Counted from the first letter of the stretch, positions 35,619 to 39,769 are shown. The stretch is DNA of 64,000 bases from Chlamydiales bacterium (GCA_024233495.1 JACKPM010000001.1:258584-322583); one strand, 5' to 3'. Notes: generated by a model from the sequence alone, not told the origin. Program-made: numbers and translations.

Positions 35619-36659
35619 CTAATAACTCGTCAATACGTAGCGGGCAACCTCGTACGCATCTGGGTTAAGGTCCCAATCTTGTTGTTCTAAAATGGTTCTT
35701 CCTTTCTTACCAAAGGAAAAGATAGCTTTTGCTGCTGCCAGACGCACTTCAAACTCGGGGTCTTGCAGTAGGGGAAGGAGAGCTGAAAAAGATTCGTTGC
35801 TGCGGATTTCCCCAAGTGCTTTGAGGGCGCTCTCCCGCACACGGCTCTCTTCATCATGGAGCAAAACCACTAAATCTTCTACAGTCATAGGAGAGGCTAG
35901 GTTGCCCAAAATGCGGCAGACGAAAAGTCGAATTTCAGTGTTCGGTGAACTGAGATCTTTCCGGATAGTTGCGTGAATATTGCCATAGTATTTGTACGAA
36001 AGTACATCGAGACAGCAGAGTCGAAGCATTTCATCTTCCTTTGCCTCTTCGTACACTTTTAAGATCTCTTTTGCCTCTTCGAGAGGCATCTTGAGAAGAA
36101 CGTGTCGGTAGATAAAGCGCGCTCTGGGTGCTTCTCGCGCCATTCTCTTTAAAAGAGGGGGAATACTTGCAGCAACTTTGATCTCACCTAGAGCCTCTGC
36201 TGCAATCATTCGAACGTAGTAGCTTTTATCTTCAAGGAGTCCCTCAATATTTTTCCGGTCCTTCTCTTCCGTATGGAGTAAGAAGATGCGTGCTACGTGG
36301 TTGCGGTGAATCCATCTCCTTCTAAGGAGGTTCGCACGTGCCCATGGAAGGAGGTAAGCTTCGGTAAGATGTGTTTCTACCTTCTCCCAATTTTTATCTT
36401 GGAAGTTGGCGTGATAGTTCTCCAAGATGCGGAGCATCACATCACGAGAGATGAGTTTTTTTTTCCACTCAAAACCCTGCAACGTTTTTTGTTGTGTCAT
36501 CAATGCAAAAAGAATCTCTTTAAAGAGTTTTTCTTCCCGCCGCACTCTGCGCTGTTTGATTTCATACACAATTTTCCCCAAGATCAAAGAGACGAGCAAA
36601 AGGAGAGCGACTAAAATCTCTAGAGCCCAAATGATGTAGTATTCATGCAGGAATTTCAT
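35619..36659 (-). CDS. Membrane-anchored HEAT-repeat protein
   Basis: 346 aa. One N-terminal TM (ALEILVALLLLVSLILGKIV), then HEAT/PBS-lyase-like repeats (VRMIAAEALGEI, IRLFVCRILGNL, VRESALKALGEI, VRLAAAKAI). ATGA overlap with the upstream gene. Confidence 0.65.
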   Translation of the reverse strand: MKFLHEYYIIWALEILVALLLLVSLILGKIVYEIKQRRVRREEKLFKEILFALMTQQKTLQGFEWKKKLISRDVMLRILENYHANFQDKNWEKVETHLTEAYLLPWARANLLRRRWIHRNHVARIFLLHTEEKDRKNIEGLLEDKSYYVRMIAAEALGEIKVAASIPPLLKRMAREAPRARFIYRHVLLKMPLEEAKEILKVYEEAKEDEMLRLCCLDVLSYKYYGNIHATIRKDLSSPNTEIRLFVCRILGNLASPMTVEDLVVLLHDEESRVRESALKALGEIRSNESFSALLPLLQDPEFEVRLAAAKAIFSFGKKGRTILEQQDWDLNPDAYEVARYVLTSY

Positions 36660-39067
36660 TGATTGAGAATCGCCAATGCCTTTTGTACAAGCACTGAAAT
36701 GCTAAAAGGTTTCGTAATATAATCTACAGCCCCCATCTTCAGCCCATCTAGAATGTCTTTTTCTGAAGCGAGGGAGGTAAGGAAAAGTGCCTTCACCCTT
36801 CCAGGAAACTTCTCTTTCAACATGTGTAGAAGAGTGATGCCATCTCGGTCAGGAAGAACTCTATCTAAAATAAACAGAGTGTGCTCCTCCAGCCTTTCCA
36901 TCTTTGCAAAGTGGTCCAAAGCCTCTTGTCCAGTGTGAAAGTCGATAATGTCGAAGCCGTGGTTTTTGAACATGTACGTGATCACATTGCACAAGTCAAT
37001 ATCATCATCGACTAAGATCACGTGCCTAGTCTCTGCTGCAATCGCCATGCCTTCGGTGAGTCGCTTGAGGGTGACGCGTTTCCCTCCTGCATCTTGCGAC
37101 TCTTGGAGTGCATTGCGCGTCTCCTCTAAAACTTGTTCTAACTTAGCGCCATGCGTGTCAAAAAGAGTAGCCCCTGCACTCAATGTGAAACGGAGATCCT
37201 CTCTTCCTGCAAGCCAAACTTTTTCTCGCATCTGAGAAAAAAACGCATCCAACAGCGCCTCGAGCTCTCCACCGCTCATTCCTTCAAAAAAAAGCGAAAA
37301 GCAAGATTCCCCCATATAGCCATATTGTGAACGCACTGAAAATTGCGCCTTGATCGTGCTCGCAACATTGATCAAAAGCTCTTTGCTTTCAGTGCTCGAG
37401 AGAGTGTGTTGCACCGTATCCCACAGATCGATTTCGATCAGCACTAAAATTCCCCGCCCATCTTTTGCAAAAGGAAAACGGTCGTGCACTTTTTGTAAAA
37501 AATACGACTTTTTATAGAGGCTAGTTGTTGGATCGATCATTGTTTGGAGACCAACACTTGCATGCCGCATCAATAAGTTCGATACTCGTGATTTGAAGTA
37601 TTCTGGCTGAATAGGCTTGTAAATGATCGAGTCGCAATTTTTTTCATAAGCTGCAACCTCTTCTATTTTCTCCTTGAACGCTGTCACAAGGACAATAATC
37701 ATCCGTTGAAAGCGCATATCAGCGCGCAAAGTTTCAAGGAGCTGCTTGCCGTTAAAGTGAGGGAGGTTGATGTCGAGCAAAAGAAGGTTTGGAGAAAACT
37801 CTTCTAAAAGCTTCAACAAGTTGCGCTCATCACTTAAAAAAATACTCTCAATACCGAGATCTTCTAGGAGTTTCTTTTCAATCAATCCTACATCTTCATC
37901 ATCATCGACAACAACAGCGCGCGTATTGGGGCAAAGGTGAGACTTTTCCAACTGTTGAAAAATTTGCAGCACATTATGCTCTGTGAGCGGCTTCTTTAAA
38001 ACCCAATTGATGTTTTGCTCAAGCCACTCAATCCGCTTTGTCAAATCGTCAGAGTTCGAAATAATTCCCGTCTTGAGGTCACTCTGCTTCTCTTTCAACT
38101 TTTTCAAGATTGCGATTCCAGAGACAGTCGTGAAAGGGAAATACTCTTCGGTAACAAGGCCGCGTGCTTTGAATGGTTTTTCTTCAATCCGCTTCATAAA
38201 ATCGCGCGGATTGCTCTCAATCAAAAGGGGAAGACGAAAGCGCTCGGCTAACTTTTGAAAGACTGAGACAAGAGAGAGGTCTGAGGAAACTACAACCAAA
38301 GAGTCTTCCTCTTTTGCCGGCGCGAGCTCTTCTTTTGCAGACTTTACAGGTGTAATTGAGGCGACAGCTATGGATAAGTGCTGAAACTGCAGCCGCAATC
38401 TTCTCAAGAAAATATAGTTTTGTTTGTCGATTTTCTCTTGGTCTTCTGCAGAGATTGTTTCTTTGGAGTAGTAGTTATAGAGGAAGATCTCCTGCGCTTT
38501 ACACCCTTTCGATGCTTCCTTATAGCCGTAAGAAGCGGCGCTCCCTGCAATCTTATGCACCTCGTTGCGTAAAGCCACGAGCTTTTTCCTGTCTTGAGGA
38601 TTTTTTCGAATCGTTGAGATCTGCTCTTCAATGCGGGAAATCTTCTCAAAAATGCTCTTGTTATATGTCTCTACAAGCTCTTGGGGAAGCCCCCCTGTAT
38701 CTGCTGCTACCCTCTCTCCTTTGAGCGCTCGGAAAAGAGCGGCCATCTCTTCTTTGATGAGGGGCGTTTCCAAAACATATTCCACATGGTACTGCTGCTT
38801 AAGTTTTTGAAAACTACTTGCAGTGCGGTGTTTAGTGACAAAGAAGACAAGTGGCTTTTGGTGCGTTTTGAGCTGCTTGATCAGTTCAACAGCCTCTTCA
38901 AAGTGCTCTTTTTCAAAGATAAAAAGCGCATCAAAAGAAGCGCTCTTTTGAGCAAAGGATTCAAGATCAGTCTCATATTCACACTCAAGCGAGAAAATTT
39001 CTGTAAGTCCACTCTTCTTAAAGAAAGGTGGCAGCAATTTTTCCGGATCGAATGTGAGAATGCGCAC
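36656..39067 (-). CDS. Multidomain response regulator: pseudo-receiver, Hpt, pseudo-receiver, REC, degenerate GGDEF, REC
   Basis: 803 aa. Hpt His171 (EVHKIAGSAASYGY). REC with DDD388-390, D432 and K484. GGDEF-fold region (DPTTSLYKKSYF ... IDLWD ... YGYMGESCF) where MGESC replaces GG(D/E)EF. C-terminal REC with DDD687-689, D735 and K786. Confidence 0.75.
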   Translation of the reverse strand: MRILTFDPEKLLPPFFKKSGLTEIFSLECEYETDLESFAQKSASFDALFIFEKEHFEEAVELIKQLKTHQKPLVFFVTKHRTASSFQKLKQQYHVEYVLETPLIKEEMAALFRALKGERVAADTGGLPQELVETYNKSIFEKISRIEEQISTIRKNPQDRKKLVALRNEVHKIAGSAASYGYKEASKGCKAQEIFLYNYYSKETISAEDQEKIDKQNYIFLRRLRLQFQHLSIAVASITPVKSAKEELAPAKEEDSLVVVSSDLSLVSVFQKLAERFRLPLLIESNPRDFMKRIEEKPFKARGLVTEEYFPFTTVSGIAILKKLKEKQSDLKTGIISNSDDLTKRIEWLEQNINWVLKKPLTEHNVLQIFQQLEKSHLCPNTRAVVVDDDEDVGLIEKKLLEDLGIESIFLSDERNLLKLLEEFSPNLLLLDINLPHFNGKQLLETLRADMRFQRMIIVLVTAFKEKIEEVAAYEKNCDSIIYKPIQPEYFKSRVSNLLMRHASVGLQTMIDPTTSLYKKSYFLQKVHDRFPFAKDGRGILVLIEIDLWDTVQHTLSSTESKELLINVASTIKAQFSVRSQYGYMGESCFSLFFEGMSGGELEALLDAFFSQMREKVWLAGREDLRFTLSAGATLFDTHGAKLEQVLEETRNALQESQDAGGKRVTLKRLTEGMAIAAETRHVILVDDDIDLCNVITYMFKNHGFDIIDFHTGQEALDHFAKMERLEEHTLFILDRVLPDRDGITLLHMLKEKFPGRVKALFLTSLASEKDILDGLKMGAVDYITKPFSISVLVQKALAILNQ

Positions 39068-39732
39068 TATCTAACACTCACGATCGGAATTTTCTGAAAT
39101 GCGAGGAGGAATTTTCTAAAAAAAAGTGCATTTTCCTTCACAATGCGCTCTTTTGTTTCTTGAGAAACATGTTCATCCGCATAGTTCTCTTCTAGAAATT
39201 TCTCATGTGCACGGCAAACGCTTGTTACAACGGGGAAGCCGTACGAGGCAGCATTGCCCGCCAGTTTGTGCACCCCATTGCGCAAGTTGACTAAATCTTC
39301 TTTGTTCGGCGGGGAACTCTCCACTTTTTGAATAAAGTCTTCAATTTCTGCGATCTTATCATAAAGAGAATCAGCATACTTTTGAATGAGCTCAGGAGGA
39401 AGCTCGCTGCTCATGTCAGCACTTGATATCTCAATTCGCCCTTCAAGTGCGGCCTGTAATGCCTCAAACTCCTCTTTTTGCACAGGTGTTTCCAAGAGAA
39501 AGTTCACCCCTCTTTTTTTCAAAGTCATAAACTCAGAAGCGCTTTTGTGCTTTGTTGTAAAAAGGGCGATCTTACTTCCCTCGCAACTGGCAAGAATCTG
39601 TTCAAGCTTCTCATCCTCTACAATAAAGACAACATCGCTTTTTCTTGAGACTACCTCTGCAGGTGTCTTGGCAATTTCAAATCCTTTCGCATGGTCACTT
39701 AGCATTCCATTTGGATCGTAGATCAGCGGCAT
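39067..39732 (-). CDS. Pseudo-receiver plus Hpt phosphotransfer protein (paralog of the N-terminal ~225 aa of the downstream regulator)
   Basis: About 221 aa. GVHKLAGNAASYGF Hpt motif (His codon 39268..39270). It is collinear with residues 1-225 of the 803-aa protein. Its stop overlaps the next start (TAGTG). Confidence 0.7.
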   Translation of the reverse strand: MPLIYDPNGMLSDHAKGFEIAKTPAEVVSRKSDVVFIVEDEKLEQILASCEGSKIALFTTKHKSASEFMTLKKRGVNFLLETPVQKEEFEALQAALEGRIEISSADMSSELPPELIQKYADSLYDKIAEIEDFIQKVESSPPNKEDLVNLRNGVHKLAGNAASYGFPVVTSVCRAHEKFLEENYADEHVSQETKERIVKENALFFRKFLLAFQKIPIVSVR

Positions 39733-39769
39733 CAATACTCTTGGGGTTGAATTTTTATTCTCCTATATA

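Follow-up and report, generated by a model that had tools for sequence, protein, structure and literature searches.

We analysed a 64,000-nucleotide (nt) stretch of DNA from a Chlamydiales bacterium (GCA_024233495.1 JACKPM010000001.1:258584-322583; hereafter the window), focusing on an 803-residue multi-domain response regulator that contains a degenerate GGDEF-fold domain. Its gene is one of four on the minus strand, which encode a small protein composed of a receiver-like domain and an Hpt domain, the regulator, a HEAT-repeat protein and a membrane glycosyltransferase of family 2 (GT2), and which are joined via overlaps or 1-nt gaps. The TAG stop of the small gene overlaps the GTG start of the regulator gene (TAGTG), and the start of the HEAT gene overlaps the regulator stop by 4 nt (ATGA). 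On the plus strand, divergent from this operon, are three genes for a TPR protein, a histidine kinase and a 135-residue stand-alone receiver (Table 1). The coordinates of the open reading frames (ORFs) given in an initial annotation, made from the DNA alone, proved right, and all peptide strings quoted there were found. One start needed correction: the reading that opens MMPL is the 222-residue form, and the 221-residue form named there opens MPLIYDPNG.

Table 1. Features of the regulator locus, with positions counted from the first nucleotide of the window (AF2, AlphaFold2; pLDDT, predicted local distance difference test)
Feature	Position	Strand	Evidence or remark
Small pseudo-receiver/Hpt protein	39067..39735	-	221 residues from ATG 39732 or 222 residues from TTG 39735
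Small protein, receiver-like domain, trimmed, residues 1-96	39445..39732	-	AF2
Small protein, Hpt four-helix bundle, residues 113-212	39097..39396	-	His155 at 39268..39270, predicted phospho-accepting
Multi-domain response regulator, 803 residues	36656..39067	-	GTG start
Regulator, pseudo-receiver 1, residues 1-115	38723..39067	-	AF2 (beta-alpha)5, pLDDT ~85-90
Regulator, internal Hpt, residues 129-227	38387..38683	-	His171 at 38555..38557 in motif VHKIAGSAASYG
Regulator, pseudo-receiver 2, residues 255-373	37949..38305	-	Pfam Response_reg partial, 22.3 bits; AF2 (beta-alpha)5
Regulator, REC3, canonical, residues 383-508	37544..37921	-	Pfam 62.3 bits; D432 at 37772..37774
Regulator, degenerate GGDEF-fold domain, residues 510-670	37058..37540	-	Pfam, PDB sequence match, Foldseek
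Regulator, REC4, canonical, residues 682-802	36662..37024	-	Best Pfam Response_reg stretch; D735 at 36863..36865
HEAT-repeat protein, 346 residues	35619..36659	-	Pfam HEAT_2, 88 bits
Membrane GT2 polysaccharide synthase, 476 residues	34187..35617	-	Pfam Glycos_transf_2, Glyco_tranf_2_3, weak Chitin_synth_2
TPR protein, 1253 residues	39938..43699	+	Many TPR families; PgaA and BcsC partial matches
Membrane histidine kinase, 712 residues	43701..45839	+	Pfam HisKA and HATPase_c, without receiver
Stand-alone receiver, 135 residues	45829..46236	+	Pfam 82 bits; overlaps kinase gene by 11 nt
Two further glycosyltransferases: GT2, 253 residues; GT1-like, up to 399 residues	32436..34203	+	Pfam; convergent with synthase operon

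Domain anatomy of the regulator and its small paralog

The regulator comprises six domains, in the order pseudo-receiver, Hpt, pseudo-receiver, REC, GGDEF fold and REC. Its AlphaFold2 model (mean pLDDT 81.6) shows two (beta-alpha)5 folds, a four-helix bundle and two receivers at the residues listed in Table 1, together with a GGDEF fold at residues 520-670, and Pfam assigns three Response_reg stretches. Most of the residues that define a diguanylate cyclase have been lost from the GGDEF fold, and those that define a phosphorylatable receiver are present in REC3 and REC4.

Sequence and structure comparisons agree that the central domain is a GGDEF fold, as the initial annotation held. The Pfam GGDEF family (PF00990) matches residues 510-663; it scores 34.3 bits for the entire protein and 38.7 bits for the domain taken alone, both above its gathering score of 23.8. 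Foldseek places the domain among several GGDEF structures with template-modelling (TM) scores of 0.84-0.89. The best PDB sequence match is the GGDEF domain of Pseudomonas aeruginosa FimX (3hva; E 1.3e-7), which is also the best single-domain Foldseek match (target TM 0.89, root-mean-square deviation 1.9 Å). Moreover, residues 255-670 superpose on full-length Caulobacter PleD (Foldseek E 1.9e-22, ~455 columns).

The equivalent of the active site (A-site) is G586-E587-S588-C589-F590 (GESCF; 37298..37312), in which F590 is the invariant Phe; of GG[DE]EF, the second Gly and both acidic positions are replaced. The initial annotation had read this motif one residue out of register, as MGESC (585-589, 37301..37315). 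Alignment with the canonical relatives P0013, P0014, P0015 and P0022 and with the Thermotoga maritima structure 4urq revealed that WDTVQH stands for FKxxND (N and D to Q and H) and SQDAGG for AKxxGR (K and R to Q and G), by which the guanine-binding and the phosphate-binding residues are replaced, respectively. The first metal-binding Asp, D547, is the sole cyclase residue left. At the inhibitory site (I-site), S577-V-R-S580 (SVRS) occupies the position of the RxxD motif, whose absence had been noted initially; RxxD is missing from all close orthologs too and is carried by the same four canonical relatives. Furthermore, the A-site position differs among six orthologs (GESCF, SDARF, EKARF, REALF, DEGNF and EETFF), and the GGDEF-like domain is not a conserved nucleotide pocket. 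With nearly every cyclase-defining residue replaced, the domain lacks both the motifs of an active cyclase and that of an I-site receptor, and is predicted from sequence and modelled structure to be catalytically dead. No other GGDEF, EAL or HD-GYP sequence was detectable within the window.

Checked against the PF00072 catalytic set, REC3 is complete (D388/D389, D432, T462 and K484 followed by Pro), and so is REC4 (D687/D688, D735, T764 and K786 followed by Pro), in agreement with the residues first picked out; both are thus predicted to be phosphorylatable. REC4 has PDB matches, such as YycF, down to E 1e-13. By the same check, neither N-terminal receiver-like segment holds the full catalytic set, and nor does the receiver-like domain of the small protein. 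In pseudo-receiver 2, E307 occupies the phospho-site and S261-S262-D263 the acidic pair, with S337 and K359 retained; hhalign aligns it with REC3 (E 3.2e-4), placing E307 opposite D432. In pseudo-receiver 1, F51 (with E52 adjacent) is found at the phospho-Asp position and T101 at the conserved Lys position. This segment has no Pfam match and its hhalign comparison with REC3 is not significant (E 0.12). It does align with the canonical N-terminal receivers of the relatives P0007, P0008, P0013, P0014 and P0022; this alignment, the predicted fold and weak Foldseek matches of the small protein suggest that it is receiver-like. Both segments are therefore Asp-less, as initially described.

The internal Hpt domain scores 24.3 bits in Pfam (PF01627), borderline and just below the gathering score of 24.6, and V170-A177 around its His171 are invariant across nine relatives. 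Among close orthologs, mean identity is 0.70 for REC4, the most conserved domain of the regulator, 0.61 for REC3, 0.51 for Hpt and 0.44 for the GGDEF-like domain, the least conserved of the folded domains.

The small protein upstream repeats the N-terminal part of this architecture. Its AlphaFold2 model (pLDDT 85.9, predicted TM score 0.77) consists of a trimmed receiver-like domain followed by a four-helix bundle, and gave Foldseek matches, all weak (E>=5e-3), to receivers and to Hpt or CheA-P1 bundles. Its Hpt domain reaches 30.6 bits in Pfam (PF01627; gathering score 24.6), matches the Hpt segments of ArcB, BarA and TorS in NCBIfam, and has a His that aligns with the phospho-His of CheA P1. 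Given the predicted four-helix bundles and the conserved VHK.AG.A.SYG around the His, both proteins appear to carry genuine Hpt domains, as the initial annotation proposed.

The collinearity of the small protein with the regulator N-terminus, also remarked on there, is borne out by BLASTP (40% identity over 204 residues, E 4e-40; residues 24-218 against 33-233). The small protein is a paralog of the first ~230 residues of the regulator. The idea of a tandem duplication thus stands as far as paralogy is concerned, with an old rather than a recent date. Orthologs of the small gene, encoding 216 and 211 residues, lie directly upstream of the regulator in loci L005 and L091, respectively. Their products are 41-43% identical to the window copy and 57% identical to each other, and all three retain VHK.AG.A.SYG. 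In a neighbour-joining tree of the N-terminal modules, the small proteins of the window and L005 cluster together with 99% bootstrap, apart from their own neighbours. The L091 copy was left out of this tree; it shares 57% identity with the L005 copy, as against only ~34% with its own neighbour. The duplication is therefore ancient: orthologs sit in two other lineages, and the two small proteins in the tree group together. L001, L004 and L008 have no such gene. These orthologs came from reading neighbouring loci: a word-indexed search that started from the small protein found nothing beyond that protein, which marks a limit of sensitivity and not a true absence, and a metagenome scan added just a second copy of the L091 organism.

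Family distribution and conserved gene context

An exhaustive HMMER search at E<=1e-30 recovered 188 cluster representatives (clustering at 50% identity), where a word-indexed search had suggested ~15 relatives. Most are ~800 residues long and collinear with the window regulator. Of the best 153 of the 188, once aligned, 136 have the Hpt His, 143 the Asp of REC3 and 144 its Lys. Only 13 carry canonical GG[DE]EF and 27 carry RxxD, and the positions of the former active site vary strongly. At least ~140 diverged clusters, the named ones belonging to the Chlamydiales, have thus lost both nucleotide sites and nearly always kept the fold, the Hpt His and the receiver Asp. The terminal receivers of these degenerate members vary: 27 clusters have an N-terminal Asp and a C-terminal Glu at the phospho-site, 22 (the window protein included) a non-Asp N-terminus and a C-terminal Asp, and 25 keep both. 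To judge by the phospho-site residues, the phosphorylatable end seems to have switched from one terminus to the other among the members.

Among the relatives with a taxonomic name, the degenerate ones belong to Criblamydia sequanensis, Candidatus Protochlamydia phocaeensis and metagenome-assembled genomes (MAGs) of Waddliaceae, Parachlamydiaceae and Chlamydiales, and the canonical ones to Planctomycetota and Fibrobacteria. In the source annotation family members are merely called 'response regulator' or similar, and in the literature we found no description of this regulator family, nor of enzymes for cyclic di-guanosine monophosphate (c-di-GMP) in Chlamydiae. A scan of a genome collection yielded L008 and L009 as the chlamydial loci among the matches listed, which were dominated by unrelated receivers. 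L008 (CAMAUB010000156.1) is a 3.6-kb MAG contig with a 41%-identical homolog beside a TPR gene; its title, 'Chlamydia trachomatis isolate MaH-04nov19-12', almost certainly mislabels an environmental chlamydia. Two relatives, P0010 and P0012, seemed to have a STAS domain in place of GGDEF. This was rejected, as pairwise alignment revealed an N-terminal STAS addition with the degenerate GGDEF-like region present. In P0012 (L007 10001..12283) the STAS (anti-anti-sigma) domain precedes the Hpt/receiver/degenerate-GGDEF core, and REC4 is missing.

The polysaccharide-synthase neighbourhood pointed out in the initial annotation recurs outside the window. Regulator, HEAT and GT2 genes lie opposite a TPR gene in the same order in the window, L001, L004, L005 and L091, over regulator identities of 43-62%. 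The junctions in these five lineages are 4-nt overlaps or gaps of <=5 nt, and the regulator/HEAT overlap of 4 nt is found in four of the five. HEAT orthologs (54-58% identity) always follow the regulator in the loci read. Of the four fully read lineages other than the window, three also have a histidine kinase gene past the TPR gene. On a sixth contig, which is short, the regulator and a divergent TPR gene are all that can be seen. Other matches to the HEAT protein (WOR-3, Nitrospira) were rejected as generic repeats in unrelated contexts.

Each product of the locus has a recognisable counterpart. The GT2 synthase is nearest to PgaC/IcaA, with 115.9 bits to NCBIfam PgaC_IcaA (TIGR03937) against an equivalog cut-off of 422.3, and BcsA is a weak PDB match; by sequence it is a GT2 synthase related to PgaC/IcaA. 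The HEAT protein has a single membrane helix near its N-terminus and, after it, a basic stretch, which by the positive-inside rule would orient it to the cytoplasm. The TPR protein begins with a signal-peptide-like segment and ends in THVF; its C-terminal 353 residues gave no match in Pfam. It is a putative export scaffold or porin like PgaA or BcsC. The histidine kinase finds its best NCBIfam matches in the kinase cores of TorS, ArcB and BarA. The 135-residue receiver resembles those of hybrid kinases, with best NCBIfam matches to the receiver segments of ArcB, BarA and TorS.

The locus as a whole resembles the PgaABCD and Bcs systems in pairing a membrane GT2 synthase with a large TPR protein whose C-terminus is probably located in the outer membrane. 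It differs in that the PgaC and PgaA scores fall far below the equivalog cut-offs, that no PgaB, PgaD, BcsB or PilZ is found at the locus, that a HEAT-repeat membrane protein is the conserved partner, and that regulation apparently proceeds by phosphorelay and not by c-di-GMP.

Neighbours differ at other loci, those of more distant family members among them. In L006 and L007, hybrid kinases and single receivers adjoin the regulator; P0012 (L007) adjoins a cellulose-synthase-like GT2 gene, TPR genes, a glycoside hydrolase family 26 (GH26) gene and two kinase-receiver pairs, with a PP2C phosphatase gene 9 kb upstream. P0008 in L003 lies near cytochrome bd and mur genes, and a gene with a DAC domain (CdaA-type di-adenylate cyclase; L003 5507..6310) lies 4 kb upstream of it. 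In L088 (202..5684) the gene for a 30%-identical HEAT protein has a GH18 gene of the chitinase family on one side and a GT2 and a TPR gene on the other; this arrangement hints that the HEAT-GT2 module makes a polymer containing N-acetylglucosamine. In L001 (14875..17123; Chlamydiales MAG GCA_022601535.1) a UDP-glucose/GDP-mannose dehydrogenase and an epimerase are encoded between the synthase and two glycosyltransferases. The window has neither gene there, a difference suggesting that the two lineages draw on different sugar precursors.

A candidate phosphorelay and its alternatives

We favour, at a probability of about 55%, the reading that the 803-residue protein is a cyclase-dead descendant of a PleD-like receiver-GGDEF cyclase, and now acts as a phosphorylation-controlled regulator within a His-Asp-His-Asp relay, probably controlling the synthase. 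On this reading, the signal to the regulator would be phosphorylation. The likeness to PleD (compare also WspR and DgcR) extends to a receiver pair in which one member is phosphorylatable and the other serves as an adaptor. However, in the regulator the order of the phosphorylatable receiver and the pseudo-receiver is reversed, A-site and I-site are lost, and an N-terminal pseudo-receiver, an Hpt domain and a C-terminal receiver are added, which places it outside the cyclase enzyme class.

Domain anatomy, the loss of A-site and I-site, the kept phospho-sites, the synteny and the spread of the family are observations. We infer the order of phosphotransfer, the contact with HEAT protein and GT2, and the effect on polysaccharide synthesis as follows. 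Initially, the membrane kinase would autophosphorylate and pass the phosphoryl group to the stand-alone receiver, the two behaving as a split hybrid kinase. Afterwards, the small Hpt (His155), the internal Hpt (His171) or both would hand it on to D432, D735 or both in the regulator. Phosphorylation would then rearrange the stem of pseudo-receiver, receiver and GGDEF domain or change its dimerisation, as in PleD, so that the GGDEF-fold domain, as a structural or docking module, acts on the co-translated HEAT membrane protein and the PgaC-like GT2. Finally, polysaccharide export through the TPR outer-membrane protein would be switched without any c-di-GMP.

The upstream half of this scheme draws on the likeness of three gene products to segments of ArcB, BarA and TorS; the locus would therefore hold a split tripartite kinase, and a target with two receivers and an Hpt domain. 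As in those kinases, the kinase core, the 135-residue receiver and the small Hpt together would supply His-Asp-His chemistry. In contrast to them, the modules are separate genes, the Hpt domain carries a pseudo-receiver and is encoded across a divergent promoter, and a second Hpt domain is built into the target regulator. The distribution of the modules fits consecutive action of the small Hpt and the stand-alone receiver: both are present in the window, L005 and L091, and both are absent from L004, which has the kinase only, and from L001, which has no kinase in the locus. The downstream half draws on the lack of any DNA-binding or enzymatic output in the regulator, because of which its GGDEF fold is probably a docking or structural module; since the regulator is moreover coupled to HEAT and GT2, protein contact with the synthase is the most likely output in this subclade. 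In its most specific form, the proposal is that the dead GGDEF fold is a phosphorylation-gated activator that docks on a HEAT adaptor and GT2, was rewired from c-di-GMP control of the synthase, and is fed by a split four-step phosphorelay with a dedicated pseudo-receiver-Hpt shuttle. A second-messenger pathway would thereby have been short-circuited into a direct protein switch, in a lineage whose window shows no c-di-GMP enzymes. Taken with all these particulars, we judge the proposal possible but less likely than not.

Several observations weigh against the favoured reading. The link of the regulator to HEAT and GT2 comes from operon membership, which can reflect co-regulation only. A HEAT-GT2-TPR module is found in L088 with no regulator visible, on a short contig. 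The distant members in L003 (P0008) and L009 (Parachlamydiaceae) are not beside polysaccharide genes; control of exopolysaccharide is therefore not a family-wide function, and with members in such unrelated contexts, control of the synthase is at most a function of the subclade. Nor is the wiring of the relay fixed, because L001 lacks the kinase, and L004 the receiver and the small Hpt, and the co-occurrence of the latter two may reflect a single gain or loss. In addition, the GGDEF-like domain, as the least conserved of the folded domains, lends little support to a specific docking surface.

The main rival explanation we judge possible if rather unlikely. According to it, the regulator is a phosphorelay hub or phosphate sink, whose Hpt domain and two receivers store phosphoryl groups and redistribute them to or from other kinases and regulators, with the GGDEF-like domain as a spacer and the operon reflecting co-expression instead of direct action on the synthase. 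The residues invariant across the family are indeed the Hpt His and the REC3 Asp and Lys, not those of the GGDEF-like domain; the presence of an Hpt domain within a response regulator suits a middle step of a relay better than the last one; and a second kinase and receiver pair lies 7 kb further along the window. The absence of a polysaccharide context in distant relatives sustains this alternative. Yet it leaves two things poorly explained, namely the tight translational coupling to HEAT and GT2 conserved over 43-62% identity, and the retention in ~140 diverged clusters of a folded GGDEF-like domain of ~160 residues, which suggests more than a linker.

Degenerate GGDEF domains are usually explained as sensors of c-di-GMP or guanosine triphosphate (GTP). 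Applied here, the domain would bind a nucleotide at a remnant or non-canonical site and integrate it with phosphorylation, the candidates being GTP, cyclic di-adenosine monophosphate (c-di-AMP), guanosine tetra- or pentaphosphate ((p)ppGpp) and c-di-GMP; c-di-AMP is the cyclic dinucleotide known to be made by chlamydiae. The retained D547, the existence of PleD structures with (p)ppGpp, and the best match to FimX in both sequence and structure speak for such a receptor. FimX, whose GDSIF resembles GESCF, is likewise cyclase-dead; its motif is predicted to retain weak affinity for GTP, its EAL domain binds c-di-GMP, and FimX acts on the pilus ATPase PilB (PMC11656802). The regulator differs from FimX in having no EAL domain, a motif unconserved in its orthologs, and receivers and an Hpt domain as flanks. 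We regard a receptor role as improbable because the motif is not conserved: even close orthologs differ at the A-site positions and none has the I-site, the residues for binding guanine and phosphate are substituted, and the window has no other c-di-GMP gene.

The parallel that the initial annotation drew with PelD, YdaK and PssE holds in part. PelD and YdaK are inactive GGDEF-fold proteins encoded with polysaccharide synthase operons. PssE is a further one (PMC4125290). All three are c-di-GMP receptors via an intact RxxD I-site and have no receivers, whereas the regulator has SVRS, two receivers and an Hpt domain. Since the regulator is without an I-site, the comparison is an analogy of role only and does not extend to membership of that group.

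Two further explanations fare worse. The GGDEF region, or the whole gene, might be a functionless relic drifting to loss after c-di-GMP signalling was abandoned, in keeping with a former active site that is hypervariable and with a conservation below that of every other folded domain. This is very unlikely, given a reading frame intact in every lineage examined, a confidently predicted fold (pLDDT ~80-90), and retention of the domain in most of the ~140 degenerate clusters, cultured Criblamydia and Protochlamydia included. Scarcely credible is a residual or altered cyclase that would use unusual catalytic residues to make c-di-GMP or some other cyclic dinucleotide. Although the fold and the first metal-binding Asp are kept, the second Gly, both motif acids, the base-recognising N/D and the phosphate-binding K/R are replaced, and by different residues in different orthologs.

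Hpt domains were found in 1.85% of 108 surveyed chlamydial genomes and hybrid kinases in none (PMC4558063), and an earlier census concluded that chlamydia had lost all signal transducers but kinases (PMC1183210). We regard the regulator as a genuine variant built from known signalling parts, coherent, uncharacterised and moderately surprising. Should the dead domain serve as a docking module under phosphorylation control, as the favoured reading has it, the family would exemplify the conversion of a second-messenger enzyme into a pure protein switch. It would also offer a first handle on multi-step phosphorelays and synthase-dependent polysaccharide export in chlamydiae, both little studied in the environmental ones. 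The question is testable, because homologs exist in the cultured Criblamydia sequanensis and Protochlamydia phocaeensis.

Other features of the window

Both extra glycosyltransferase genes are kept beside the locus in L001, L004 and L091. The GT1-like ORF (33004..34203) spans 399 residues from a TTG and overlaps the preceding GT2 gene by ~190 nt; its real start is probably further downstream, because the orthologs have only 338-354 residues. The wider surroundings include rpsL-rpsG-fusA, scpAB and a tail-specific protease gene. Homologs assign the window to an environmental chlamydia within the Chlamydiales. Promoter and terminator scans returned no more sites than in shuffled sequence, so no transcript boundaries are claimed, and PADLOC gave no meaningful match to a defence system.

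Further along the window (53263..57521), a second histidine kinase gene (836 residues; HisKA and HATPase_c) is directly adjoined by a gene for a 131-residue single receiver, in a split-hybrid layout as at 43701..46236, followed by one for a 449-residue CHASE and PAS protein that has no kinase domain. These genes might feed the small and internal Hpt domains. Directly after the CHASE-PAS ORF lie two short ORFs (57820..58652) that are pieces of an IS4/5-family transposase (DUF4096, DDE_Tnp_1), and the sensor gene may have been truncated by insertion of this element.

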